The notes beneath the pieces were generated by a model that saw only the letters and a list, made by a program, of their open reading frames with translations, did not search any database and had not been told where the DNA came from. This document shows, piece after piece, positions 1 to 13,436 of a DNA stretch of 13,511 nucleotides (the stretch's first letter is position 1; each line of letters starts with the position of its first letter). The stretch lies in the NCBI GenBank assembly GCA_963666315.2, contig CAXXHG010000025.1:1-13511 (forward strand), in the 5' to 3' direction. This DNA is from Candidatus Binatia bacterium (lineage in GTDB: Bacteria > Desulfobacterota > Binatia > Bin18). A program made the position numbers and the translations under genes.

Positions 1-848
1 AATTCCTTAATCCGCACCATATAGCGATCAAAACAATCTCCCAGGGTTCCAACTTCTCCGGTCCCAACCGGCACCTCAAAGTCTAATTCGGGATAAACAG
101 AATACGGTTCATCCCGGCGGACATCATACTGAAATCCGCAGCCGCGCAGGTTGGGGCCAACTAGATTGTAGTTGATGGCCTCTTCTTTACTGATCACGGC
201 GACATTGGCTAGGCGTTGAACGTAGATCTTATTATAGGAAATGAGGTCATTATACTCATCGATCAGGGATCCAAACTGATCGAGGAAGGCCGTCACCTTC
301 TCTGTATACCCGGGCGGCAGATCCCAGGCCACTCCGCCAATACGCATATAATTAAAGGTCAAACGCGCGCCACACAGGTCTTCAAGCAAGTCGTTGACTT
401 TTTCTCGCTCGCGCAGCGCATGCGTAAACGGGGTCATACCACCGATATCCATGGCCATCGTGCCAACCGAGAGCAAGTGGCTGGCAATGCGGCCTAACTC
501 GCAGGCAATGACTCGACAGAACTCTCCTCGTCTAGGGACTTCGATCCCCGCAGCGCGCTCACAGACTATAGCCCAGCCCTGGTTACACTGCATGGCCGAA
601 ACATAATCGACCCGGTCCGTATAGGGCATGAAACCGTGATAGCCGACCTTTTCAGATATTTTCTCTATCGAACGGTGGAGATAGCCGACATCGGGGATGG
701 CTGTGCGCATGATTTCACCATCAGCCTTTACGATAAAACGCAGCACACCGTGAGTACTCGGATGTTGAGGCCCCATATTCAGGGTCATCTCTTCCGTTGC
801 TATGCCATCATCGCGTTGGACTTCAAATTCATACCCCGCCAGGCTCAT
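1..848 (-). CDS. nuoD: NADH-quinone oxidoreductase subunit D (5' part; runs off the left edge)
   Basis: Not in the ORF track because its stop lies outside the window. Manual translation from ATG at 848 (SD GGAGGAG just upstream) gives [38 protein letters not shown]...[10 protein letters not shown]...YTDRVDYV...ELGRIASHL...[14 protein letters not shown]...GDCFDRY, open to base 1. [17 protein letters not shown] and DRxDY are NuoD hallmarks. Confidence 0.97.
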
Positions 849-923
849 ACACTCCTCCAGCTTTGGACTTGAAAAAATATCGCTCTAAAAAAGAGTATGC
901 AGAGATAGAACACAAGCGTCCGT

Positions 924-1418
924 CTATTTCAGCAGGCTCTCTCTGCGCGTGCTGATGCCATGGTATTCTTCAGGCTCAACAAAATCTTTGCGGAGGGGAT
1001 ATCCAATCCAATCTTCCGGCATCAGCAGACGCCGCAAGTCCGAGTGTCCGCTGAACACCACGCCGAGTAAATCGTAGATTTCGCGCTCCAGCCAATTGGC
1101 AGCCTTCCACACCCTTTCAATAGAGGGCATGGTCGAGTCTTCACGCGGCACATCTATCTTGACCACAATCATGTGGCGGTGTGTATACGAATAGAGATGC
1201 AGGACAACTTGGATCTTGTCTTCTTTGAAGTAATCAACCCCAGACATATTGGACAAGCAATCGAAGGCGAGATCCGCGTCGTCGTGAAGAAACTGGCACA
1301 CTTCGACGAGAGAGGCGGGTTTAATGACAATGAAAGGGTCAAGAGCTTCTGCTTCGAAAGACTCAATAGCATCACCGCACTGGTCTTGTAATTTTCTATA
1401 TACCTCTGCAGGACTCAT
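924..1418 (-). CDS. nuoC: NADH-quinone oxidoreductase subunit C
   Basis: ANWLEREIYDLLGVVFSGHSDLRRLLMPEDWIGYPLRKDF is the 30-kDa subunit signature; the gene lies between nuoB and nuoD. Start is uncertain: ATG 1418 chosen, GTG 1427 possible. Confidence 0.95.
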   Translation of the reverse strand: MSPAEVYRKLQDQCGDAIESFEAEALDPFIVIKPASLVEVCQFLHDDADLAFDCLSNMSGVDYFKEDKIQVVLHLYSYTHRHMIVVKIDVPREDSTMPSIERVWKAANWLEREIYDLLGVVFSGHSDLRRLLMPEDWIGYPLRKDFVEPEEYHGISTRRESLLK

Positions 1419-1474
1419 AACGTACACACAGTTTCTGCGTTCGTCCTTTTATTTCGTTTGTCCTGGGCTCTCTT

Positions 1475-1975
1475 CTACGCTGCGGCTTGAGCGGCAGAGC
1501 CCTTCACCAGCCAGCGTTCCTGCATCATTTTTTCCTGCAGCTTGAGCAGGCCCTCGGTCAAGGCTTCGGGACGGGGCGGACAGCCAGGCACATACACATC
1601 AACCGGGATGACCTTATCAACACCATCACACACCGAGTAGGCTAACTGGAACAGCCCGCCACAGTTTGCGCAGCTGCCCATAGAGATGACATATTTCGGG
1701 TCGGGCATTTGGTCGTACAGAACCTTCGTACGAAGCGCCATTTTCAACGTAAGCGTCCCGGCAATAATCATCATGTCGGACTGTCTGGGCGTGGCCCGTG
1801 GGGCCGCCCCAAATCGTTCGATATCAGCCCGAGGACCGCCCGTCTGTATTAATTCAATCCCGCAGCATGCCAAACCGAACAGCATATACCAAACAGATGA
1901 TTTCCGTGTCCAATTCAAGACCTCATCCAGCTTAGTCGTCAGAACCATCTCAGGAACGCTATTAATCAGCGACAT
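1475..1975 (-). CDS. nuoB: NADH-quinone oxidoreductase subunit B (in-operon copy)
   Basis: FGLACC, PRQSD, GSCA and [13 protein letters not shown] supply all four N2 cluster cysteines. SD GGAGGAGG. Canonical position between nuoA and nuoC. Confidence 0.97.
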
Positions 1976-1984
1976 GCCTCCTCC

Positions 1985-2407
1985 TTACGCTGCCTTCTGT
2001 AATTCCGACTCCTCAGTTGCCGCCGGCTGCAGCTGTTTGATCCACTCCAGGTCTCGTTTGACCCACACATACACCAGGCCGACAATCAGAATGCCGAGGA
2101 ATAGCAAGATTTCAGTTAACGCAAACAACCCCTGTCCATTCAGCAGCCATGCTCGGAACGCCACTGCAACCGGAAAAATAAAAGCGACTTCGACTTCAAA
2201 GATAACAAAAATAAGCGCGACCAGATAAAAACGAATATTAAAGTTGATCCAGGCACCACCCGTAGGCGGCTCTCCACATTCGTACGTGGTCAGTTTCTTC
2301 GCTTCCGGATTATGCGGGCGCAGCAGCTTGCCGATCGCGAGCTGAACGGCACAGAAACCAATCGCCAGGATCGAAAACACAAGCACGTTCGCAAGATTAA
2401 ACGCCAC
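1985..2407 (-). CDS. nuoA: NADH-quinone oxidoreductase subunit A
   Basis: Three hydrophobic segments, KLTTYECGEPP loop, RFYLVALIFVIFEVE and C-terminal WVKRDLEW. GTG start with AGGAG upstream. Confidence 0.96.
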   Translation of the reverse strand: MAFNLANVLVFSILAIGFCAVQLAIGKLLRPHNPEAKKLTTYECGEPPTGGAWINFNIRFYLVALIFVIFEVEVAFIFPVAVAFRAWLLNGQGLFALTEILLFLGILIVGLVYVWVKRDLEWIKQLQPAATEESELQKAA

Positions 2408-2485: not shown

Positions 2486-3019
2486 TCAAAGCAACGGCTC
2501 AACAGGCTGATAACGAGCAGCCTCTCTATATCTCCCCTGCTCCTGATGGGCAAGCTCCTCCCGCAAACCGACCTTGGGTGCTATTTGCCCAATAGAGACA
2601 CCGGCTAAATAACTCCCCAGCAGACGCTGCGCCTCCCCCCAGACTGAAATCTGGTTGCAGATCGGGTGATAACAACACGCGTGGCCGTCTTCATCCAGGC
2701 ACTCCATCAGTAAAAGCCGTCCTTCTAGGCACTCATAGACTGTTCGCACACTTATTTCCGATGCGGGTTTCTTGAGCCTAAACCCACCCCGGGCACCCAT
2801 AGACGACTCGACCAAACCACCACCGGCCAGCTGCTTCATAATCTTAGAGAGGAAATGCGCGGGAATATCCTGTTGCGTCTGAATTTCCCGCCGCGGCACG
2901 ACTCGGTCTTGCGGCTGCGCGGCCAGATAGGTGAGCGCCCGAACCGCGTAATCCACCCGCCGGCCGATGTTCATCAGGGAACTCCGCTCGGTCGAGCGCT
3001 GCGGTGTTGCTGTATCCAT
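2486..3019 (-). CDS. Rrf2-family Fe-S-binding transcriptional regulator (IscR/NsrR-like)
   Basis: DYAVRAL helix, HTH (IPAHFLSKIMKQL), wing GLVESSMGARGGFRL and Cys cluster ECLDEDGHACCYHPIC. Start placed at ATG 3019 (GAGG upstream); the Rrf2 domain proper begins at ATG 2974 (MNIGRRVDY). Confidence 0.93.
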   Translation of the reverse strand: MDTATPQRSTERSSLMNIGRRVDYAVRALTYLAAQPQDRVVPRREIQTQQDIPAHFLSKIMKQLAGGGLVESSMGARGGFRLKKPASEISVRTVYECLEGRLLLMECLDEDGHACCYHPICNQISVWGEAQRLLGSYLAGVSIGQIAPKVGLREELAHQEQGRYREAARYQPVEPLL

Positions 3020-3121: not shown

Positions 3122-3652
3122 CTAAATCTGAGCCCCACGAAATTTCTGCTTTTGGCCTTGGATTTTACGCTGTAATGCCATAAGCGCATCGAGCACATTT
3201 TCCGGACGAGGCGGGCAGCCGGGTACATAGACATCCACAGGGACAAGACGATCAATACCGGCAACCGTGGTATAATTGTCATAAAACCCGCCGGTTGCGG
3301 CACACGCCCCAAAAGCCATGACCCACTTTGGCTCGGTCATTTGCTCGTACACCCGCTGCAGTATAGGCGCCTGTCGGCAGGTCACCGTTCCAATCACCAT
3401 GAGGAGATCGGCCTGTCTTGGACTAAACCGTGGCAGCAATGCGCCGAAGCGATCAATATCGTACGGCGTCATGGACAATGACATATATTCCATTGCACAA
3501 CACGCCGTCGCGAATGGATAGGGGAAGATGGAGTATTTTCTGGCCCAGCCCAAGGCCTTGTCTAATTGGGTCAGAACGGCAGCGTCCCCAAGGAGAGCCT
3601 CCTCACCACCCTGCAGTCGCGTCGACGTTATCGACGTGGGATGATTATCCAT
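3122..3652 (-). CDS. nuoB: Second, stand-alone NuoB paralogue
   Basis: [48 protein letters not shown]. The track ORF (to 3748) overlaps iscU; the likely start is ATG 3652 after GAGAAGGT (ATG 3664 is an alternative). Confidence 0.93.
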   Translation of the reverse strand: MDNHPTSITSTRLQGGEEALLGDAAVLTQLDKALGWARKYSIFPYPFATACCAMEYMSLSMTPYDIDRFGALLPRFSPRQADLLMVIGTVTCRQAPILQRVYEQMTEPKWVMAFGACAATGGFYDNYTTVAGIDRLVPVDVYVPGCPPRPENVLDALMALQRKIQGQKQKFRGAQI

Positions 3653-3671
3653 ACCTTCTCTCATTGTTACG

Positions 3672-4085
3672 TTACGCGGCTTTGTCGGATTTGGGGACGT
3701 CCACACGACCTTTCTCCCGCCAGTCCGCCACCGCCGCCTTGATCGCATCCTCTGCTAACACCGAACAGTGTATCTTCACCGGCGGCAGCGACAGCTCTGT
3801 CACGATGTGCGTGTTCCGGATCTCATACGCCTCCGCGACCGTCTTCCCCTTCACTAACTCCGTCACATAACTCGACGACGCAATCGCCGACCCGCACCCA
3901 AACGTCTTAAACTTCGCATCCTCGATCACTTCCGTAACCGGATTGATCTTCAGCTGCAGCTTCATCACGTCCCCGCACTCCGGCGCCCCCACCACGCCCG
4001 TCCCTACGTTCTCCTCGTCTTTCCCAAAACTCCCCACGTTCTTCGGCCGCTCAAAATGCTCTATGACTTTCGCTGTGTATGCCAT
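3672..4085 (-). CDS. iscU: Fe-S cluster scaffold protein IscU
   Basis: MAY..V..HF..P.NVG, GAPECGDVMKLQ, FKTFGCGSAIAS and LPPVKIHCS: three Cys, Asp, His and the HscA-binding LPPVK motif. ATG 4085 with AAGGA upstream. Confidence 0.97.
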   Translation of the reverse strand: MAYTAKVIEHFERPKNVGSFGKDEENVGTGVVGAPECGDVMKLQLKINPVTEVIEDAKFKTFGCGSAIASSSYVTELVKGKTVAEAYEIRNTHIVTELSLPPVKIHCSVLAEDAIKAAVADWREKGRVDVPKSDKAA

Positions 4086-4147
4086 GTGAGTTTCCTTTCT
4101 GTCACCAAGAATGGTCGAACAAAAACACTTTTCGGACAACTATTTTG

Positions 4148-4177
4148 ATAATAGAGTTATAGAGTCTAACTTGTCAA
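4148..4177 (-). promoter_or_regulatory. Sigma70-type promoter for iscU-nuoB2-rrf2-nuo: TTGACA-N18-TATTAT
   Basis: Perfect -35 (4172-4177) and 5/6 -10 (4148-4153) on the minus strand in an AT-rich gap, about 60 nt upstream of iscU. Confidence 0.75.
4152..4168. promoter_or_regulatory. Putative Rrf2/IscR-type operator (TAGAG-N7-GTCTA) in the iscU promoter spacer
   Basis: Near-palindrome TAGAGttatagaGTCTA. The same motif sits at the same position in the Mrp promoter (8347-8363). Confidence 0.7.
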
Positions 4178-4238
4178 CCGCGCTTCTTTTATTGGACTAC
4201 CATAGGAATTTATCTCTTAGTATCTCTTGCTTGGTCAG

Positions 4239-5015
4239 CTACCACTTCTCATATTTAACCGCTTTCCGCTCGTAGCCAGCCCCACGCAAGAGGTCCCGCA
4301 GGAGAAGAATCGGCCGCCCTATACCACAAATATAGAACTGCCGGTCGCGGCGTGTGTCATTCTGGACATAGTGCTGTTCGATATAGGGCAGCAGCGATTT
4401 TTCTACCCCGTAGCCATCAGGCCGACGAGGATGGTGCGGTTCGAGAATCGGCCTAAAAGAGAAGCGTGGATCCTGACGTTCCCAGGCTTGCCATTCAGCC
4501 CGATATAACAAGTCGCTTTCTTCTCGCGCAGCATACAGCAGCCGTGCAGTACTCTTCTCGCTGCGAGAAAGCAGGCGCTGAATCATCGAGCGAAAGGGAA
4601 TAACCCCAACTCGGTCTGCAATAAAGACGTACTCGGCGTTAAGCGGTTGATCGAGCACAAAAGTGCCCCATGGTCCGGTAAATCGGAGAACATCCGCCTC
4701 CTTCCGACTGAAAAGGTAGGCTGAGCCAGGACCATCCGCTACGCGGTTGAGACAAATTTCCAGATGCTCAGAGTCCTCAGGTAATGAAGCAATGGTATAG
4801 GCCCTGGTAATAGTCTGCTCGCCTGCTGGCAAAGAAAAGGAGAGAAATTGGCCGGGTTTAAAACTAAATTTCCGGCTGCCCTGGCTGCCAACGATATGCA
4901 GGAAAAATGAGCGGGTATCCGGGGTGCGCTCAACAATGCGCGCAATAGTTGCCTCAAAAGCCTGAGGGGAAGAGCCACATGGGGAGGACGGGGAGGATGC
5001 GCCGGCCGTTTGCAT
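4239..5015 (-). CDS. Ferredoxin-NAD(P) reductase-like FAD-binding oxidoreductase
   Basis: FKPGQF, RAYTIAS (RxYS/T FAD motif), GPGSAYL, GPWG, FYICG and C-terminal YEKW. The NAD(P)-binding loop is degenerate (IADRVGVIPF). Confidence 0.88.
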   Translation of the reverse strand: MQTAGASSPSSPCGSSPQAFEATIARIVERTPDTRSFFLHIVGSQGSRKFSFKPGQFLSFSLPAGEQTITRAYTIASLPEDSEHLEICLNRVADGPGSAYLFSRKEADVLRFTGPWGTFVLDQPLNAEYVFIADRVGVIPFRSMIQRLLSRSEKSTARLLYAAREESDLLYRAEWQAWERQDPRFSFRPILEPHHPRRPDGYGVEKSLLPYIEQHYVQNDTRRDRQFYICGIGRPILLLRDLLRGAGYERKAVKYEKW

Positions 5016-5029
5016 TGCCGCGTTCTCAA

Positions 5030-5383
5030 CTACACCTGCTGATTAATGGTGTGGCGAGGAATGAGAATCGTGACATCGCCGTCCGCCATCACGGCCTGAC
5101 AGCCTAGCCGAGATGTTGGTCGCAAACCGGGAGCCCGGTCGAGCATATCGTCCTCTTCTTCTTCATTCTCGGACAGCTGCTGCATCCCTTCAGTCACGAT
5201 TACGTGACACGTCGTGCAGGCACAATTGCCCCCGCAGGCATGCTCAAGAGCAAGCCCGTGGCCTAAAAGGATGTCGAGGATGGAGCCAGGCTCTCCATCA
5301 TGGTGAAACGGCGCTTTCGCCAGGTCACACTCAATTGTCTGTTCAGGATCTCCATTCTCAAACAGGACGCGTAATCGTGCCAT
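5030..5383 (-). CDS. fdx: ISC-type (adrenodoxin-like) [2Fe-2S] ferredoxin
   Basis: LEHACGGNCACTTCHV, EEEDDMLD, SRLGCQ and IPRHTIN match the ISC Fdx pattern C-X5-C-X2-C...C. Confidence 0.93.
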   Translation of the reverse strand: MARLRVLFENGDPEQTIECDLAKAPFHHDGEPGSILDILLGHGLALEHACGGNCACTTCHVIVTEGMQQLSENEEEEDDMLDRAPGLRPTSRLGCQAVMADGDVTILIPRHTINQQV

Positions 5384-5384
5384 T

Positions 5385-5424
5385 ATTCAACTTCGTTCAA
5401 CTTCATTCAATTTCGTTCAGCTTC
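5385..5424. repeat. Tandem repeat, 4 x 10 bp (RTTCAACTTC)
   Basis: attcaacttc gttcaacttc attcaatttc gttcagcttc, abutting the fdx start codon. Confidence 0.9.
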
Positions 5425-5430
5425 GAATCA

Positions 5431-5472
5431 GTGACGTGTCACCAGTGCCGTGTCACCAGCGACGTGTCACCA
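5431..5472. repeat. Tandem repeat, 3 x 14 bp (GTGACGTGTCACCA)
   Basis: gtgacgtgtcacca gtgccgtgtcacca gcgacgtgtcacca. The consensus contains the palindrome GTGAC-GT-GTCAC. Confidence 0.9.
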
Positions 5473-5524
5473 GGGCGGCAACCCGCCTTTCTCTCCTGCT
5501 CTGCTTGGAGGGTCTCGGGTTGCG

Positions 5525-6598
5525 TTACTGTAAGGTCGTGGTTTGCCCGTCTCGCGTCTCGACCTGCTCAAGCTGGTTGAGAACCTGTTGGGCGATCCCC
5601 AGAAAAGTCTGGCTCTGCGGATGACCCGGCTGGGCGATCACAAGCGGGGTGCCGGCATCTCCTCCGGCCATAATATCGCGCGTAAGCGGGATCTCTCCGA
5701 GTAGCGGCAGGTTAAACTGCTCAGCCATTTTGGCTCCTCCACCATGGTTGAAAATATGGGCCCGATGGCCGCAGGAACGGCACACCAGATAACTCATATT
5801 TTCAACGACCCCCAAGACAGGCACCTCGACTTCCTCGAACATCTTTATGCCTCGCTGAACGTCGAGCAGGGCGACATCCTGCGGCGTGGTGACTATCACC
5901 CCACCGGCTAACGGAGCCTTTTGCACCACGGTGAGCTGCGCATCACCCGTACCGGGTGGCAAATCCACAATAAGGATGTCTAGCTCTCCCCACTCGACCT
6001 TGGAGATGAATTCGGTCAGCAGCTTATCTATCATCGGGCCGCGCCAAATCACGGCGTGACCATCAGGAACGAGAAAGCCCATCGACATGACCCGCATGTC
6101 GTATTTCGTCACCGGGATCAGCCGTTTGTCTTCTGTACTCCTGGGCTTATCGGTAATACCCAACATGAGGGGAATGCTTGGGCCATACACATCGGCATCC
6201 ATGATCCCAATCCGTTGACCTATGTGCGCCAACGCAGCGGCAAGATTCACGGAAACCGTGGATTTACCGACACCGCCTTTCCCACTGGCAACAGCGATGA
6301 CATGCGTAACGCCTGGAATCTCGGGCTTGGACTTTGGCATTGCAGCCGGTGCAGCAGGCTGTTGGATGGCAACCTCCACCGGGACTTGGACCAACGGACT
6401 AAGCGTTTCAATAACATTCCGCCGAATATTCTCGATCACCTCCGTATTACCGGTCGAAGGGGCGAGTTCCACTACCACAGCGGCGCCACCCACGGCAATA
6501 TCTTTAACCACGCCAAAAGCGACAATATCCCGGTTAAAGCCTGGATATTTTATCTGCTTGAGGGCTTCTAATAACTCCTGCGCTGTTGGCGTTGGCAT
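5525..6598 (-). CDS. mrp: Mrp/ApbC/NBP35-family Fe-S carrier ATPase with N-terminal DUF59-like domain (copy 1)
   Basis: VASGKGGVGKST deviant Walker A, DADVYGPSIP, WRGPM, DLPPGTGD, VTTPQ and ENMSYLVCRSC (CxxC). N-terminal LKQIKYPGFNRDIV domain. Confidence 0.95.
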   Translation of the reverse strand: MPTPTAQELLEALKQIKYPGFNRDIVAFGVVKDIAVGGAAVVVELAPSTGNTEVIENIRRNVIETLSPLVQVPVEVAIQQPAAPAAMPKSKPEIPGVTHVIAVASGKGGVGKSTVSVNLAAALAHIGQRIGIMDADVYGPSIPLMLGITDKPRSTEDKRLIPVTKYDMRVMSMGFLVPDGHAVIWRGPMIDKLLTEFISKVEWGELDILIVDLPPGTGDAQLTVVQKAPLAGGVIVTTPQDVALLDVQRGIKMFEEVEVPVLGVVENMSYLVCRSCGHRAHIFNHGGGAKMAEQFNLPLLGEIPLTRDIMAGGDAGTPLVIAQPGHPQSQTFLGIAQQVLNQLEQVETRDGQTTTLQ

Positions 6599-6608
6599 AA
6601 ATGAACCT

Positions 6609-6959
6609 TTACTGCGCTTCGTCTGGGCTATTACGGCTTGCTAAGCTGTCGCTCAACTCCCGCAGGTATTCAAACGTGTATATCCCGGTTTCATGCCCGT
6701 CATTCCAGGTCGGATTGACGGCATAATTCCCCACCAGATTGACGCTCACCAGCTGTGGGTCTTCCACCTGGGTAAAACGGCGCTCCCCGCCGTGCCCTTG
6801 GCACACGGCGCACGGACACCAGCCGCGCAGATACGCAAATGGATAATCGCTCATGACATCATCGTCCCAGAGCACGCGAAGCATGTTTTCTTCCGGAATC
6901 GGAGTGAGAAGGATGGGCGTTGGCATACGGGCTATCCTTATCTGACCCTTATCATTCAT
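6609..6959 (-). CDS. DUF971 / GBBH-like N-terminal domain protein
   Basis: W.D...S.Y....LRGWCPCAVC...VGNYAV...WNDGHETGIYTFEYLREL is the DUF971 pattern. ATG 6959 overlaps the upstream mrp stop (ATGA); ATG 6926 (AAGGA upstream) is an alternative start. Confidence 0.92.
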   Translation of the reverse strand: MNDKGQIRIARMPTPILLTPIPEENMLRVLWDDDVMSDYPFAYLRGWCPCAVCQGHGGERRFTQVEDPQLVSVNLVGNYAVNPTWNDGHETGIYTFEYLRELSDSLASRNSPDEAQ

Positions 6960-8026
6960 ACCGAGTGCACGGAGTGTTGCAGCTGCATTTCCTCTGCTTC
7001 CACCACCTGTCTCGCAATACTACAAAATTCCTGGGCAACCGGGTGCTCAGGGTCAGCAACAATAATCGGCTTGCCCGCATCACCCCCAATCCGGACCTCT
7101 TCTACAAGGGGGATTTCGCCCAGGACTTTGAGTCCCGTCTTCTGCGCGCCGCCATGGCCGAATACGTCTTCTTTCTCCTGGCACACCGGACACTGGTAGA
7201 AACTCATATTCTCAATCACGCCAAGAATCGGCACCTTGACTTGATTAAACATGGCGATGCCCCGTTGGACATCAAGCAACGCCACATCCTGTGGAGTGGT
7301 CACAATGACGCCACCGTGCAGCGGAACCTCCTGGGTGAGCGTTAGTGCAATATCGCCGGTCCCTGGCGGGAGATCCACCACCAAATAGTCCAACTCGCCC
7401 CAGATGACGTCGCGCAGGAACTGACGAACAATACCCATGACAATCGGGCCACGCCAAATTGCCGGAGATTCATCGTCGAGAAAAAATCCCATGGAAATGA
7501 GGCTCACCCCATACTTTTCGACCGGATAAATCTTCTTGTCTTGGCCAGCACGCGGCGTTGCCTCAGCGCCCATCATGAGTGGGACACTCGGCCCGTAGAT
7601 ATCTGCATCCAAAAGACCGACCGTATTCCCCAACGAACCCAGCGCCAACGCCAGGTTCACCGCAACGGTCGATTTCCCGACCCCGCCCTTTCCGCTGGCC
7701 ACGGCAAGAATCCGCTGGACGCCCGGAATATCGGCTCGCTCTCGAACGGCTGGGTTGCCAGCTTTACCGGATGGGCCTTGCCCCACCTGAGGAGCGACTG
7801 CGTGTATATGGACGTGCTCGATCCCTGGCAGCCGGGTAAGCTCTTGCGTGATGCGTCCACGCAGATGTCGCAGGACCTCTTCTTTCATGCTGCTCGCCCG
7901 GATCTGAATGACAACGCTGTCCGCTTGGACCTCGACCTTGCCAACCAGCCCGAGTGTCACAATATCCCGCGGGGAGCCGGGATAGGAAATCTGCTTGAGT
8001 CGTTGGATAATGTCTTGTTCGCTCAC
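6956..8026 (-). CDS. mrp: Mrp/ApbC/NBP35-family Fe-S carrier ATPase with N-terminal DUF59-like domain (copy 2)
   Basis: VASGKGGVGKST, DADIYGPSVP, WRGP, DLPPGTGD, VTTPQ and ENMSFYQCPVC. Start moved from 8050 to GTG 8026, which has GAGGAG 9 nt upstream. Confidence 0.95.
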   Translation of the reverse strand: MSEQDIIQRLKQISYPGSPRDIVTLGLVGKVEVQADSVVIQIRASSMKEEVLRHLRGRITQELTRLPGIEHVHIHAVAPQVGQGPSGKAGNPAVRERADIPGVQRILAVASGKGGVGKSTVAVNLALALGSLGNTVGLLDADIYGPSVPLMMGAEATPRAGQDKKIYPVEKYGVSLISMGFFLDDESPAIWRGPIVMGIVRQFLRDVIWGELDYLVVDLPPGTGDIALTLTQEVPLHGGVIVTTPQDVALLDVQRGIAMFNQVKVPILGVIENMSFYQCPVCQEKEDVFGHGGAQKTGLKVLGEIPLVEEVRIGGDAGKPIIVADPEHPVAQEFCSIARQVVEAEEMQLQHSVHSV

Positions 8027-8280
8027 CGAAGGATACTCCTCAACCTGCACGTCAGGACTCGGTCGCCGTTCTGTCGCCCTCTATATAGACTACTCGGTGG
8101 GAGCTGCTTTAGGCTGCAGCAGGAAGCCACAGCAGACAAGCAGACGCATGTCTTGGTAGAAAAGAATTGTGAGTGTTTCTTCTGTTGATACAAGCCGTGG
8201 CGCCGCACCGTCGAAATCTTCTGTGCAAATTTTTTGTGAATATTTTTGGCCCAACCTGCAAACTCGCCCGATATTCCCAC

Positions 8281-8297
8281 TGGACGGTTTTGGTCAC
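8281..8297. promoter_or_regulatory. Possible third operator copy (TGGAC-N7-GTCAC) in the mrp leader
   Basis: tggacggttttggtcac has the same GAC-N7-GTC core, about 45-60 bp downstream of the predicted -10. Confidence 0.45.
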
Positions 8298-8342
8298 TAG
8301 GCTCTCATGGTCCTCGTGTTTTGTGGGAAGCTTGACCTTTTT

Positions 8343-8372
8343 AAAATAGACCTATAGCGTCCACATTGTCAA
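8343..8372 (-). promoter_or_regulatory. Sigma70-type promoter TTGACA-N18-TATTTT for the mrp-DUF971-mrp-fdx-FNR unit, with operator TAGAC-N7-GTCCA (8347-8363) in the spacer
   Basis: Perfect -35 at 8367-8372 (minus strand). 8338-8374 matches the iscU promoter 4143-4179 at 29/37 positions without gaps. Confidence 0.7.
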
Positions 8373-8426
8373 CCCCAAAAGGTCATGGGGTTACCCTGCC
8401 CACTCTATCCGAAAGAGATCTGTATT

Positions 8427-10199
8427 TTAAAAGGGCCACGCATAGGGGATACAGACCATGGAGACAACAAAAAGAATGATCTTGAGCGGGAGTCCGATCT
8501 TGATGAAATCAAGAAAACGATACCCTCCGGCTCCGTACACCATCAGGTTGGTATGGTAGCCAAGTGGGGAAGCGAAGCTGGAGGATGCAGCAACTGTCAC
8601 GGCAATGGCAAACGGTCTCGCATCCACCCCAAATTGGCGCGCAGCCTCGCAGGCAATAGGAAAAACAAGCACCACAGCTGCCGCGTTTGATATCACTTCC
8701 GAGAAGACCGACGTCGCCAGATAGACGGCGGCAAGCACGCCAATAGGGCCCAAGCCGGCACCCACATCCACCAATATTGAGGCCAGAACTTCTGCAGCCC
8801 CAGTTTTATCCACGGCTTTCCCAATACCAAATGCAGCAGCGATTAAGAGCAGGACCGACATGTCCACAACGCCACGCGTTTCCCCGATCGACAAGCAGCC
8901 CAACATGACAACAGTAGATGCAGCTAAAAGCGCTGCCGTCACCATAGGCAGGATACCCGCGGTGACAGTCACCACAAGCACGATCAAGACAAGCAGAGCG
9001 GGAACCGCTTTGTCATAGCGGGGCGGCGCACTATCGTGCACCTCAGACACTAAGTAAAAATCGGGAGAATTACGATACGCACGCGCGAATTCAGATGACG
9101 CCTCCAAGAGGAGGGTATCTCCTACGTGCAGAATAATATCGCCGATCTTTCCGCTGATCCGCTGTCCTCCGCGATGGACGGCGACAACCGCAGCACCATA
9201 ACGCGTTCGGAAGTTGGCATCCCGGATCGTACTCCCCATTAAGGGAGAATCCTCAGAAATAACGGCCTCGCTCAAATTCGCTCGTTCAAGAAAGTGCTCC
9301 CGACCATCCCGGTGCTCCCCAGAAGGAATCAGTCCTCGGATTTTCTGCAGATCAACAATGGTTGACACAACACCCGTAAACACCATCCGGTCGCCAACTT
9401 GAATGCGCTCTTGAGGTCCGACCGGAGCCACCATTTTTTCTACGCGCTCAATACTGATCAAAAACAGGCCGGGCAGATGGCGCAAGCCGGCCTGCTCCAC
9501 CCGCTGTCCAACTAGGGGACATTCTGTTGTGACCTCCAGCTCAACAAGATACTCTCGAGGGCTCTCCTCGATCTGCTCAATCAATCCTTTTCGATCAGGC
9601 AGTAGGTGCCAGCCAACAAACGTAATAAAGGTGAGGCCGACCAGAGCGCACGGGAGCCCGACTGCACTGAGTTCGAAAAAAGACAATCCCGGCATCCCAG
9701 CGTCTATCATCAAACTATTGCCGACTAAATTCGCCGAGGTCCCAATGAGCGTACAGGTACCGCCTAATATGGTCGCAAAGGAAAGCGGAATTAAAAAACG
9801 CGAAGGGGAGACGCCATGCCGTCGAGTCCAACCAACCACGACCGGAATGAACATGGCGACAATCGGTGTACTATTAAGAAATGCCGACGCTCCAGCAACA
9901 GGAATCATCATTCTCACCAGCGAGCGGCGCGCACTTTTAATTTGGCCAAAGATGCGTGTGGCTACAAATTCAAGAGCGCCGGTATGTTGGAGTGCGCCTG
10001 CAACTACAAACAGCGCCCCAATAGATACGATGCCGGAATTGGAAAAACCCACCAGGGCCTCTTCTGGAGTTAAGACACCGGCAGCAAGTAAAAGCGCCAC
10101 CAGACCCAGAAAAATCAAATCGGGAGCCAAGACTTCACGGATCAATGCCGCTATACCAAGCCCAGTGATCCCAAGAGTAAACCACGCTTCCCAACTCAT
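8427..10199 (-). CDS. SLC13/CitMHS-family permease with central TrkA-C domains (YfbS/SLT-like anion transporter)
   Basis: N-terminal TM block with SAFLNSTPIV and GGTCTLIGTSANL, soluble TrkA-C repeats (CPLVGQRVEQAGLR; SPLMGSTIRDANFRTRYGAAVVAVHRGG), C-terminal SNAA and SPLGYHTNLMVYGAGGYRFLDFIKIG. Start ATG 10199 preferred over GTG 10229. The substrate cannot be read from the sequence. Confidence 0.92.
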   Translation of the reverse strand: MSWEAWFTLGITGLGIAALIREVLAPDLIFLGLVALLLAAGVLTPEEALVGFSNSGIVSIGALFVVAGALQHTGALEFVATRIFGQIKSARRSLVRMMIPVAGASAFLNSTPIVAMFIPVVVGWTRRHGVSPSRFLIPLSFATILGGTCTLIGTSANLVGNSLMIDAGMPGLSFFELSAVGLPCALVGLTFITFVGWHLLPDRKGLIEQIEESPREYLVELEVTTECPLVGQRVEQAGLRHLPGLFLISIERVEKMVAPVGPQERIQVGDRMVFTGVVSTIVDLQKIRGLIPSGEHRDGREHFLERANLSEAVISEDSPLMGSTIRDANFRTRYGAAVVAVHRGGQRISGKIGDIILHVGDTLLLEASSEFARAYRNSPDFYLVSEVHDSAPPRYDKAVPALLVLIVLVVTVTAGILPMVTAALLAASTVVMLGCLSIGETRGVVDMSVLLLIAAAFGIGKAVDKTGAAEVLASILVDVGAGLGPIGVLAAVYLATSVFSEVISNAAAVVLVFPIACEAARQFGVDARPFAIAVTVAASSSFASPLGYHTNLMVYGAGGYRFLDFIKIGLPLKIILFVVSMVCIPYAWPF

Positions 10200-10291
10200 A
10201 CTGCTCGTATCCTTCTTCTCATCTGGCACATCCTCTAGCCGCTCTTCAAGGCAGGTCCGTATAAATGGCGCACGATAGCGCGTCGATCCCT

Positions 10292-10664: not shown

Positions 10665-11252
10665 ATGCGGCGGAATTGGCGCGCACGACTGACACCGTTT
10701 CAGCAACGGATCTATGATCGCAGCACCACGATCGCAACCATTGAATTTGATCCAACACCGCAACTCTACGCTGCAGTGAAGACATTGTCTGGTGCCCTCG
10801 CTGTAGCAGAGCAGTCACGCGTAGCGACCCTGTCACAAACAATCGTCAATCACATCTGCTGGCGGCTGGGGGTGCACACGGTACAGGTCCGGGTACATGG
10901 GATACGTCCCTCAAACCGCCGTGGAGAGCTGCACGGACTCTATACGCAATACAGCGGCGGCAGCAAAAACGACTCGATTCAAGTATGGATGCGAACGGCG
11001 AAACGGCAGCAGACGGTCGCTTTTCGGACATTCTTGCGTACCCTCCTGCACGAAGTCTGCCATCATTTGGACTACACCTATTTCCATTTTCGAGAATCCT
11101 ACCACACGGAAGGCTTCTTCCAGCGCGAGTCGAGTCTTTTCAGAGCTTTGGTCGCCCCACCATCGCAGTCGCCACAGCCCCCGGCTCAATCTCTCTCCTC
11201 TCTGGTGAAGGAAATCCTTACCCCACAGGCAGTGCATCACCAAGACCAATAG
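10665..11252 (+). CDS. Hypothetical zincin-like (HEXXH) metalloprotein, SprT/Wss1-like motif arrangement
   Basis: SD GGAG before ATG. LHGLY...IQVW...TLLHEVCHHLDY followed by YHTEGFF (candidate third His). No signal peptide; Pro/Gln-rich tail. Confidence 0.75.
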   Translation: MRRNWRARLTPFQQRIYDRSTTIATIEFDPTPQLYAAVKTLSGALAVAEQSRVATLSQTIVNHICWRLGVHTVQVRVHGIRPSNRRGELHGLYTQYSGGSKNDSIQVWMRTAKRQQTVAFRTFLRTLLHEVCHHLDYTYFHFRESYHTEGFFQRESSLFRALVAPPSQSPQPPAQSLSSLVKEILTPQAVHHQDQ

Positions 11253-11274
11253 GACCAATAGGACTAATAAGACC
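11244..11274. repeat. Tandem repeat, about 3.4 x 9 bp (GACCAATAG)
   Basis: gaccaatag gaccaatag gactaataa gacc. The first unit supplies the TAG stop of the 10665 ORF. Confidence 0.85.
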
Positions 11275-11356
11275 GGCGCGCGGCATAGACGAGTAACGCC
11301 GCTGCAGCACAGGAACAAAAGGGACAACCCCATACGCCAATACGGCCGGCAGCCCT

Positions 11357-12069
11357 CTAGTTATGCCCCCGTGACATGCGTTGCTCGACTTCTCGGAGTC
11401 GGCGTTTGGCGTGCGGATTCCCCGGTTCATAGCGCAACACGTGGCACAGTTCCGCCGCAGTACGATACTTTTGACCCATCTGAGAGTACGTCCCGGCAAG
11501 TTCAAAATGCGCGCACGGACTCTCAGGACACTGCCGGAGTCCGCATAGCGTAGGCCTACACGATCCGCCTCCAACTCTTGGTCTTGTTTAAAGTGGTTCA
11601 GAAAGAGCTGGCCGAGCATCCCAGCTGCCAATCCTCCCCCAGGAAAAACGGCACTGGCCAAGCTACTCCCGATACTCAAGAGCGCATTATTCGTCGTCCC
11701 GCATGATGCATGTCCTTGCGCAATATGGTCCAGTTCGTGACCGAGAATTAGAGCTAATTCATCATCCGAACGTAAAAACTGTATCATTCCAAAGGAGACC
11801 ATAACTTTTCCATAGGTCGCCCCAGCGTTAATTGAAGCTTCTTCAGCGGCCAGGATAAATTGGACAAGGGGCGGTTGTGGGACAGACTCAAGCAAGCGGC
11901 GCGCAACCCGCTCGATCTGATCGACTTGCTGCTGGGAGCGGGCGTAGTCCTGCGGTGCGATGCGCCTCGACTCATGGGCAGTTTGGGCGGTGACCCGAGC
12001 GGCAACAATTCCATGAGTGGCGAAGAGACCACACAGAGCGATAGCACTCGCTACAATCCAGTGTCGCAT
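11357..12069 (-). pseudogene. M48-family metallopeptidase plus TPR (BepA/YfgC-like), internally deleted and frameshifted
   Basis: ATG 12069, signal-like N-terminus, INAGA, DDELALILGHELDH and QDQELEADRVGLRYA, after which similarity ends near 11544. A different frame (11542-11357) encodes a TPR-like tail GLRQCPESPCAHFELAGTYSQMG...VLRYEPGNPHAKRRLREVEQRMSRGHN*. Confidence 0.75.
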
Positions 12070-12089
12070 CCTGTCTTCCTTTTCCTTTG

Positions 12090-12098
12090 TGCTATAGT
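12090..12098 (+). promoter_or_regulatory. Possible extended -10 promoter (TGcTATAGT) for asnS
   Basis: Lies in the 71-bp divergent gap, about 40 nt upstream of asnS; no good -35. Confidence 0.35.
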
Positions 12099-12140
12099 GC
12101 ATCTCTCACACGCACACCACAACCCAAGAAAGGGATACGT

Positions 12141-13436
12141 ATGCCTGAGTGGGTTTATGTCCGAAATATTGCACAATGCGAAGGGCAAGAAGTTGAACTT
12201 CGCGGCTGGCTGTATAGCAAGCGCTCCAGCGGGAAATTGCATTTTCTTCAAGTCCGGGACGGCACAGGTACGATCCAATGTGTGCTGTTCAAAGGCGAAG
12301 TCTCTGACGAGATTTTTGCCTTAGGGCATACTCTGACCCAAGAATCTTCCGTCATTGTGAAGGGCACTGTGCGAGCCGATACTCGTTCTGCCATTGGATT
12401 TGAACTCGGCGTCACACATCTAGAGATCGCTCAGCAGGCCCACGACTATCCCATTACGCCCAAGGAGCATGGAGTTGCCTTTCTGTTGGATCATCGTCAT
12501 CTCTGGCTGCGCTCTGCGCGGCAGCATGCCCTGCTGCGCATCCGCAGTGAAGTCATCAAAGCCAGTCGGGACTACTTCGATGATCATGGTTTTACCCTCC
12601 TGGATGCCCCGATCTTTACGCCTGCCGCGTGTGAAGGCACGAGCACGCTTTTTCCGGTCGAGTATTTCGATGAGACAGTCTATCTCACCCAAAGTGGCCA
12701 GCTCTATATGGAAGCCGGCGCAATGGCGTTTGGCAAGGTCTACTGCTGTGGCCCAACCTTTCGCGCCGAGAAATCCAAAACGCGCCGTCATCTGACTGAG
12801 TTCTGGATGATTGAGCCCGAAGTTGCCTACTGCGACTTGAATGACGACATGGATCTGGCCGAAGACTTTCTTGAATCCGTCATTCAGCGTGTCCTGGCAC
12901 ACCGTCAGGTCGAGCTGAAAGCGCTTGAGCGCGACACCACAAAGCTGGCTCAGGTCAAGAAGCCGTTCCCGCGTATTAGCTACGGCGAGGCCATTGAACG
13001 ACTCCAAGCCAAAGGCGTCGATATTCAATGGGGAGACGACTTCGGCGGCAATGATGAGACCCTTTTGTCACAACAATTTGACCGTCCGGTCATGGTGCAT
13101 CGCTATCCCACAGAGAGCAAAGCCTTCTATATGAAGACCGATCCTAACGATGCAAAAGTCGCGCTGTGCATGGATGTCTTAGCGCCGGAAGGCTACGGCG
13201 AAATCATCGGCGGCGGACAGCGCGAAGATGACCTGTCCGTACTACAGGACAAGATCCGTGCGCAGGATCTGGCAGAAGAAACCTTCTCTTGGTACCTCGA
13301 CCTGAGACGCTACGGTTCCGTCCCCCATGCTGGTTTCGGCATGGGCATTGAGCGCATGGTCACCTGGCTGTGCGGCCTGCATCACGTGCGCGAATCGATT
13401 CCGTTTCCGAGGATGCTGGAGCGGGTGACACCATAG
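12141..13436 (+). CDS. asnS: Asparagine--tRNA ligase
   Basis: OB fold ([16 protein letters not shown]), [26 protein letters not shown], motif 2 [26 protein letters not shown] and motif 3 [18 protein letters not shown] 12141 with AAGGGA upstream. Confidence 0.97.

Follow-up and report, generated by a model that had tools for sequence, protein, structure and literature searches.

In a stretch of 13,511 nucleotides from contig CAXXHG010000025.1 of a Candidatus Binatia bacterium (the window, by which we mean this stretch at its full length), two operons for iron-sulfur (Fe-S) cluster assembly are headed by closely similar promoters, and in each the spacer between the -35 and -10 hexamers is filled by an inverted repeat. 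The sites, the geometry of the promoters, the conservation of both, and their association with a particular clade of Rrf2-family regulators and with Fe-S biogenesis genes were shown computationally. We consider it probable that these are sigma-70 promoters carrying an operator for an Fe-S Rrf2 protein, likely the dimer encoded at 2486-3019, and that they work by negative feedback in the manner of the type-1 sites of IscR.

All genes relevant to this twin-promoter system lie on the minus strand. The iscU promoter (P_iscU) would drive iscU, the gene for the Fe-S scaffold (3672-4085, ATG at 4085), followed by a NuoB-like paralogue (3122-3664) and, third, the Rrf2-family regulator gene rrf2 (2486-3019). 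The mrp promoter (P_mrp) would drive an operon at 4239-8050 that opens with mrp1, encoding an Mrp/ApbC-like Fe-S carrier (6956-8050, GTG start at 8050), and continues with a DUF971 protein gene (6609-6959), mrp2 for a second Mrp/ApbC-like Fe-S carrier (5525-6598), fdx for an ISC-type 2Fe-2S ferredoxin (5030-5383) and fnr for an FNR-like flavin reductase (4239-5015). In the proposed circuit the inverted repeat, ∼17-25 bp long with the core RGAC-N7-GTCTA, would serve as the Rrf2 operator; because it fills the 18-nt spacer and overlaps the -10 element, a cluster-loaded Rrf2 dimer seated between -35 and -10 would block RNA polymerase. When clusters are scarce or damaged, Rrf2 would lose its own cluster and leave the DNA, and both operons, together with the regulator's own gene, would be derepressed until the cluster supply recovers. 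Binding by the 2486-3019 protein, repression rather than activation, and dependence on a cluster are what we infer.

The logic of such a circuit, in which an Fe-S-sensing Rrf2 repressor acts in the promoters of Fe-S assembly genes, is already textbook; what is new is the Rrf2 clade, the variant of the operator and the content of the regulon. In the open-access literature searched, we found no paper combining Rrf2 with Binatia, and no title or abstract describing this Rrf2 clade or this operator.

Twin promoters with an inverted repeat in the spacer

The 37-mers at 4143-4179 and 8338-8374 are identical at 29 of 37 positions without gaps, exactly the coordinates and the count that a first-pass annotation of the window had given. 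When all 37-mers of the window were compared with one another on the same strand, the only other pairs with at least 29 matches lay within paralogous coding sequence, namely between NuoB and the NuoB-like gene (near 1563-1575/3198-3210) and between Mrp2 and Mrp1 (near 5870-6262/7280-7672). Shuffles of the window that preserve dinucleotide content never gave a best 37-mer match of 29 (0/14 and 0/393); the maximum in the set of 393 was 28, which was reached in 4 of them.

Both 37-mers hold a promoter of the form TTGACA-N18-TATTWT on the minus strand, as had been claimed. P_iscU (4148..4177) consists of the -35 hexamer TTGACA at 4177..4172, an 18-nt spacer and the -10 hexamer TATTAT at 4153..4148, and P_mrp (8343..8372) consists of TTGACA at 8372..8367, a spacer of the same length and TATTTT at 8348..8343. 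Each has the -35 and -10 hexamers at 16-18 nt spacing by which we define a sigma-70-type promoter. They agree with the consensus at 11 and 10 of 12 positions, respectively, and are the best and second-best promoter matches in the window; the total of 11 promoter-like sites there is not above chance (8.2 ± 2.6 expected). The predicted transcription start site of P_iscU lies near 4141, with a leader of ∼56 nt to the iscU ATG, and that of P_mrp lies near 8336, with a leader of ∼286 nt to the Mrp1 GTG.

Operator 1 (4148..4172, assigned to neither strand) fills the spacer of P_iscU and overlaps its -10 hexamer; its core, TAGAC-N7-CTCTA, lies at 4152-4168 and is imperfect in the right half-site. Operator 2 (8343..8367, likewise unstranded) has the core TGGAC-N7-GTCTA at 8347-8363. 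The first-pass annotation had described a spacer palindrome, TRGAC-N7-GTCYA, with one mismatch in the iscU copy, and this is what we found: no mismatch at 8347-8363, one at 4152-4168, and no occurrence elsewhere in the window. With the position weight matrix (PWM) described below, operators 1 and 2 score 27.1 and 26.1, and neither the core pattern nor a PWM score of at least 10 picked out a further operator copy in the window. Two other readings of the repeat were considered by eye and set aside. A Fur box was suggested by GATAAT in site 1, which is the -10 element on the opposite strand and is missing from site 2; a promoter for an extracytoplasmic function sigma factor would need a -35/-10 pair, and the 7 nt that separate the half-sites leave far too little room for one.

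Conservation and placement of the proposed operator in related loci

Relatives of the window's Rrf2 protein numbered 470 at E ≤ 0.001, and 29 of these, chosen from the best 120, were aligned with it. A scan of genome contigs with this alignment gave 162 confirmed matches, the best 80 of which (L001-L080) were analyzed with 10-kb flanks. The records are mostly Candidatus Binatia and also include metagenome-assembled genomes filed as "Deltaproteobacteria". Five loci (L001, L002, L021, L028, and L030) are filed as Enterobacteriaceae or Klebsiella and appear to come from mislabelled bins, because their gene content matches that of Binatia/Deltaproteobacteria. As judged by tblastn with the window proteins, L001-L035 share the gene cluster wholly or partly, down to ∼64% Rrf2 identity, in the conserved order mrp1, DUF971, mrp2, fdx, fnr, iscU, nuoB-like, rrf2; we refer to these as syntenic loci. 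L001 is the closest relative of the window, with neighbouring proteins 86-99% identical. The gene order of the operator-2 operon is identical in the 23 syntenic loci that cover it (L001, L003, L004, L006-L018, L023-L025, L027-L029, and L035).

In the 45 non-syntenic loci, the related Rrf2 genes (51-61% identity) stand at the start of SUF or ferredoxin operons, as seen from the 70 of 224 candidate downstream open reading frames (ORFs) that were scanned. The order rrf2-sufC-sufD-sufS-sufU-sufT was found in L037, L044, L046, and L064, and L055 has rrf2-sufC-sufD-sufS among the ORFs scanned; L039 has rrf2-nuoB-sufBCDS and L079 has rrf2-sufBCDSU. In L036, L043, L051, L052, and L076, rrf2 is followed by fdxA, a 7Fe-type ferredoxin gene. 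L044 contains two genes of this Rrf2 clade (7600-8046 and 14688-15742) with an RpoD-like sigma factor gene between them; one has the operator and leads into a suf operon, and the second, which matches only in part and precedes a nuoB copy, has no detected operator.

To avoid circularity, the 29 positions common to both window sites were used as a consensus, with at least 22 matches required. It matched 35 times in 31 of the 80 loci, always on the strand of the Rrf2 gene and not once on the opposite strand in the 1.25 Mb scanned. Alignment of the sequence upstream of iscU (14 sequences) showed TTGACAA, the half-sites G-A-C and T-C-T-A, and one T of the -10 element to be invariant, within flanks that cannot be aligned except at the ribosome-binding site and the start codon. 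Among 13 sequences from the head of the Mrp operon, the same promoter-plus-palindrome block is the sole conserved stretch in otherwise unalignable intergenic DNA. Conservation of the palindrome in orthologous promoters, which the first-pass annotation had proposed as a check, is thus borne out at both operons.

The PWM matched 95 times in 1.27 Mb (93 matches in the loci and 2 in the window) compared with 0-1 matches in shuffled sequence, a count that is circular because the PWM was trained on the loci it scored and its harsh penalties force several columns to be invariant; the positions of the matches are therefore the informative part. Similarly, the search that collected the loci started from the Rrf2 protein, which guarantees an Rrf2 gene near each site; what counts as evidence is only where the sites are placed with respect to genes. 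That placement is selective. All 29 syntenic loci that cover the region have a site in the 200 nt before iscU, and 18 of 24 have one at this distance before mrp1; at the same distance none lies upstream of rrf2 (0/35), nuoA (0/26), fdx (0/24), fnr (0/24), mrp2 (0/25), or the DUF971 gene (0/24). Among the non-syntenic loci, 31 of 45 have a site within 200 nt upstream of their own Rrf2 gene. The head of the Mrp operon has a site in 22 of 24 loci when four sites further upstream are added to the 18: in L001 the site lies ∼300 nt upstream of mrp1, as it does in the window, and in L021, L025, and L035 it lies ∼1.3 kb before mrp1, ahead of a gene for a class-V aminotransferase. Of the two remaining loci, L008 has a degenerate site and L022 ends at a contig edge. 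Hence, the motif scan of orthologous upstream regions that had been suggested returned the site in 29/29 loci for iscU and in 22/24 for the Mrp operon head.

The class-V aminotransferase is cysteine-desulfurase-like, and its gene opens the Mrp operon in those three loci (L021 5139-6362, L025 3772-5037, and L035 3398-4654). The window has no such gene, so the desulfurase of the window genome must be encoded elsewhere.

The sites also have a direction. Read along with the downstream gene, 81 of the 95 PWM matches have TTGAC or TTGAT at the -35 position; read the other way, none of the 95 does. Extra sites precede stand-alone nuoB copies (L037, L039, L055, and L057) and a rubrerythrin-like gene (L050). 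In L028 (∼4700-4780) and L029 (∼1250-1335), the palindrome lies downstream of a separate promoter-like stretch that contains TTGAC and is outside any spacer, so the operator can occur apart from the TTGACAA context. Counts of the sites that were not symmetrised gave the core R-G-A-C, Y-T-W, A, N, R-R, G-T-C-T-A. We did not rely on the symmetric 25-bp consensus of the PWM, in which symmetry was imposed in training and the outer columns are the promoter hexamers. The G-to-C change in the right half of operator 1 is seen again in 17 of the 19 sites before iscU in L001-L020, with L013 (GTCTA) and L008 (ATCTA) departing from it, and 9 of 10 more distant iscU-upstream sites have GTCTA. We speculate that the imperfect half-site may make repression of iscU weaker than that of the Mrp operon.

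The Rrf2 regulator and rival readings

Because rrf2 is the third gene of the operator-1 operon, it would be autoregulated through operator 1. Its start at 3019 is backed by an N-terminal extension that is conserved in the alignment. The protein belongs to the Rrf2 family in both Pfam (PF02082, 112 bits against a cut-off of 30) and NCBIfam (rrf2_super, 100.8 against 73.3). The best-scoring named equivalog is suf_reg_Xantho (TIGR02944), at 67.7 against a cut-off of 110.65; also below their cut-offs are RirA (61.6 against 193), CymR (51.3 against 195), NsrR (49.8 against 182), and the IscR model NF008110 (40.2 against 275). Sequence matches in the PDB were weak and were all Rrf2 proteins, namely CymR, a Thermincola Rrf2 protein, E. 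coli IscR, RsrR, and NsrR.

In all 81 sequences compared (the window and the 80 loci), three Cys residues, Asp8, the recognition-helix core Ser-Lys-Ile and the wing motif G-x-x-G-G are invariant. In IscR the cluster ligands are described as Cys92, Cys98, Cys104, and His107 (PMC6599224). Here the three Cys residues are kept with another spacing, C-x7-C-x5-C, and the position equivalent to His107 (109 in the 162-residue numbering) is I, K or R and never His; the neighbouring Gln108 is invariant. The ligands given for NsrR of S. coelicolor are Asp8, Cys93, Cys99, and Cys105 (PMC9338935). In an alignment with E. coli IscR (chain 4hf0), Ser-Lys stands at Glu43-Gln44 and Asp8 at an Arg of IscR. In an alignment with RsrR (chain 6hsd), Asp8 falls on Glu8, the residue that RsrR uses as a cluster ligand. 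The predicted cluster site therefore likely resembles that of NsrR or RsrR more than that of IscR. Glu43 of E. coli IscR is described as important for DNA recognition and as discriminating between DNA sites (PMC9338935); in its place the present clade has the Ser of the invariant Ser-Lys-Ile. The unchanged reading head would fit the unchanged operator.

The operator itself recalls IscR. The core GAC-N7-GTC, which the first-pass annotation had given for IscR type-1 sites, agrees with the E. coli type-1 consensus as printed in PMC6599224. Measured against the 25 positions of that consensus, the window sites have 15 and 16 matches and all 95 sites average 14.3; random 25-mers have 8.7 ± 2.3, and 0.7% of them reach 15. 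The resemblance is real but partial. It extends to the circuit. Like IscR of E. coli and P. aeruginosa, the regulator is an Rrf2 protein with three conserved Cys residues and a ∼25-bp palindromic operator with a GAC-N7-GTC core, predicted from position and consensus match to be bound in the regulator's own promoter. Site B of P. aeruginosa IscR is likewise described as lying between -35 and -10 of the iscR promoter (PMC6599224), and holo-IscR is reported to act at type-1 sites as a feedback repressor of the isc operon (PMC4055776). As with IscR, the regulator gene is part of a controlled operon, the targets are Fe-S assembly genes, and an FNR-type reductase belongs to the regulon, the counterpart in P. 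aeruginosa being the IscR target fprB (PMC4521836). Unlike IscR, the regulator scores below the equivalog, spaces its Cys residues differently, lacks an equivalent of His107 and has Ser-Lys for Glu43-Gln44; its gene is third in the operon and not first, the regulon is split over two separate operons with near-identical promoters, and it includes two Mrp/ApbC-type carriers, a DUF971 protein and a NuoB paralogue. From these sequence comparisons, the regulator is best described as a member of a separate Rrf2 clade with IscR-like circuit logic and not as an IscR orthologue.

Several points weigh against the IscR-like feedback reading. In addition to the circular PWM count and the fetching of loci by their Rrf2 protein, 14 of the 45 Rrf2 genes in non-syntenic loci lack a site in the 200 nt before them, and the regulator scores only 59.3 against the cut-off of 207.55 of the IscR equivalog TIGR02010. 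The Ser-Lys at Glu43-Gln44 means that the E. coli rule by which only holo-IscR binds type-1 sites is not simply transferable. One genome can hold several paralogues that share this reading head, as indicated by the assembly prefixes shared by L057 and L066 and by L058 and L076 and by the two copies in L044, and so a copy other than the local one may bind. Finally, the pattern TRGAC-N7-GTCYA alone is within chance in the window, with 0.88 matches expected and two or more in 44 of 200 shuffles; significance rests on the 29/37 match, the promoter context and the conservation across genomes.

The paralogues lead to the view that the operators are bound mainly or additionally by another Rrf2 protein encoded elsewhere, for example a SUF-linked one, within a wider Fe-S regulon with cross-talk. 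The identity of Ser-Lys-Ile, G-x-x-G-G, Asp8 and the three Cys residues in ISC- and SUF-linked copies alike, the common core of the operators in the two groups and the several copies per genome all speak for it. Nevertheless, we think it unlikely, given that all 35 syntenic loci have the Rrf2 gene either within the operon under operator control or immediately behind it, as is usual for autoregulated genes; the local 2486-3019 gene is the likeliest, though not the sole possible, source of the binding protein. Quite unlikely, in our estimate, is that the regulator senses nitric oxide, redox state or iron, as NsrR, RsrR, and RirA do, or binds DNA without a cluster. The correspondence of Asp8 to Glu8 of RsrR and to the Asp8 ligand of NsrR would suit such a sensor, as would the missing His107, the Ser in place of Glu43, and the site before the rubrerythrin-like gene of L050, which would fit an oxidative-stress response. 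Yet Fe-S assembly genes (iscU, the Mrp carriers, the cysteine-desulfurase-like gene, sufBCDSU(T), an iscA-like gene, ferredoxins, and NuoB copies) stand behind the sites in every context examined, the ORFs scanned include no nitric oxide-detoxifying gene, and the NsrR and RirA models score far below their cut-offs. The likeness to the Streptomyces proteins NsrR and RsrR is one of three Cys residues with an acidic residue at position 8 and of palindromic operators (∼23 bp in NsrR/RsrR); the targets differ, being Fe-S biogenesis here and not nitric oxide detoxification. With the Rrf2-type SUF regulators the clade shares relatives, 51-61% identical, that head suf operons and have the same operator in their own promoters; unlike those regulators, the window copy falls below the TIGR02944 cut-off and is linked to ISC-type genes and not to suf.

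We give very little credence to the remaining alternative, that the 37-mers are merely strong promoters whose spacer is preserved by some other constraint or is the target of an unrelated factor. Besides the chance-level frequency of the core pattern in the window, what suggests it is that the outer parts of the 25-mer coincide with -35 and -10, so that part of the apparent symmetry is promoter consensus. However, the G, A, C and the T, C, T, A of the spacer are invariant in the 14 aligned sequences, whose flanks resist alignment. Of 79 distinct sites, 6 are symmetric at 11 or 12 of the 12 arm pairs, the repeat stands apart from the TTGAC element in L028 and L029, and the site accompanies the Rrf2 gene in three different gene contexts. 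We retain the reading of both sites as probable operators of the local Rrf2 protein.

Read in this manner, the window provides a testable regulatory map of how Binatia, which are known solely from metagenome-assembled genomes, keep Fe-S clusters in balance; in this map the regulon joins ISC-type with Mrp/NUBPL-type components and NuoB copies recur. The invariant reading head differs from IscR at the position that sets the site choice of IscR, and the clade is a good case for studying how a new Rrf2 DNA specificity evolves under unchanged feedback logic. The operator can be used to predict regulons in complete Binatia chromosomes.

Complex I genes, the NuoB paralogue and the Mrp operon

The first-pass annotation had placed an "iscU/complex I unit" and the Mrp module under one local Rrf2 repressor. 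The iscU part of that unit stands, with sites in 29 of 29 loci, and a single local repressor for both operons agrees with the placement of the operators, their conservation and their linkage to Rrf2. The inclusion of complex I says more than the sites support: none precedes nuoA in any of 26 loci, and in L027-L035 no nuo gene was found behind rrf2 where the locus extends. In the window, nuoA, nuoB, nuoC, and the start of nuoD (3-2407, minus strand, by Pfam) follow rrf2 after a gap of 78 nt. A separate operator, promoter or terminator was sought in this gap and none was found: there is no PWM site (0/26 loci), the window has no terminator-like site and no unusual fold there (z -0.47), and alignment of the gap showed no conserved promoter block, only the ribosome-binding site and the start codon being conserved. 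With none of these elements in between, read-through from P_iscU into nuo is possible, and the nuo genes may be transcribed in this way. The arrangement is confined to part of the syntenic loci. nuoA-D follow rrf2 only in L001-L026, and in L027-L035 no nuo gene was found to follow rrf2 where the locus extends, its place being taken in L029 by tig, clpP, and clpX and in both L033 and L035 by trigger factor; the nuo link is thus specific to a sub-lineage.

The iscU product is identified by Pfam NifU_N (1e-48) and by the NCBIfam model TIGR01999 (iscU, 202.8 against a cut-off of 192.4). The NuoB-like paralogue next to it matches Pfam Oxidored_q6 and scores 274.4 with NF011392, just above the cut-off of 271; its start at 3664 was chosen by eye, and the open frame extends to 3748. 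Compared with the canonical NuoB (1475-1975), it shows 42% identity, and its CC...C...C cysteines line up with those of that protein. The paralogue adjoins rrf2 in 32 syntenic loci, including L027-L035, in which no nuo genes come after rrf2. The stand-alone nuoB copies that carry an operator lie at 5983-6444 in L037, 10577-11068 in L039, 7828-8319 in L055, and 10734-11252 in L057, and they adjoin rrf2, suf genes or an iscA-like gene.

One could go further and suppose that the distinct Rrf2 clade, coupled across the lineage to a stand-alone NuoB paralogue, controls a dedicated supply line to complex I, a sensor-wired bacterial counterpart of the mitochondrial Ind1 route, Ind1 being linked to Fe-S insertion into complex I (PMC7980591). 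We regard this as a doubtful extension. Under it, the IscU scaffold, the two NUBPL/HCF101-like carriers with a split-off DUF971, the ferredoxin and the reductase would supply complex I; the 14-gene nuo operon of the window's sub-lineage would be transcribed by read-through from the operator-controlled promoter; and the NuoB paralogue, in which all four cluster-N2 cysteines are kept, would act as a surrogate acceptor or as a reporter of cluster delivery. DUF971 is a domain of HCF101, and in the plant HCF101 protein the FeS_assembly_P, P-loop NTPase and DUF971 parts are fused. Like Ind1/NUBPL and HCF101, both Mrp carriers match PF10609 (NUBPL iron-transfer P-loop NTPase) and have an N-terminal FeS_assembly_P domain (Pfam), and a DUF971 gene follows the first of them; part of the HCF101 literature treats DUF971, Mrp and iron-sulfur together. 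Unlike those proteins, the window carriers are encoded by bacterial stand-alone genes with DUF971 separate.

The Mrp carriers score 320 and 331 bits with the NCBIfam model ApbC (cut-off 348) and the ferredoxin scores 109 with fdx_isc (cut-off 132). Mrp2 is 47% identical to Mrp1, with a C-x-x-C motif in both, and the start of the DUF971 gene overlaps the stop of mrp1 by 4 nt (6956-6959). The Mrp leader is ∼286 nt long in the window (8050-8337), ∼300 nt in L001 (4647-4948), and ∼67-175 nt in the other loci. At gathering scores, Rfam gave no match in the window, the Mrp leader included, and the leader taken as 293 nt (8045-8337, minus strand) folds no better than its shuffles (z +0.84). An 85-aa frame within it (8023-8280) has no Pfam or NCBIfam match and is only 51% identical in L001, compared with 86-99% for the neighbouring proteins; we treated it as non-coding. 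A decamer resembling the right half-site (8082-8091, minus strand), 32 nt before the Mrp1 start, was also dismissed, being within chance (3 matches compared with 1.1 expected, and three or more in 21 of 200 shuffles).

Three further genes of the window have no operator site: a gene for an M48 peptidase (11218-12102, minus strand), one for a class II tRNA synthetase of the Asp/Asn/Lys type (12087-13436, plus strand), and one for a CitMHS/DASS-type transporter with two TrkA_C domains (8427-10229, minus strand). The transporter gene lies upstream of P_mrp and ends 55 nt before its -35 hexamer, and fragments of such a transporter gene occupy the equivalent position in several syntenic loci.

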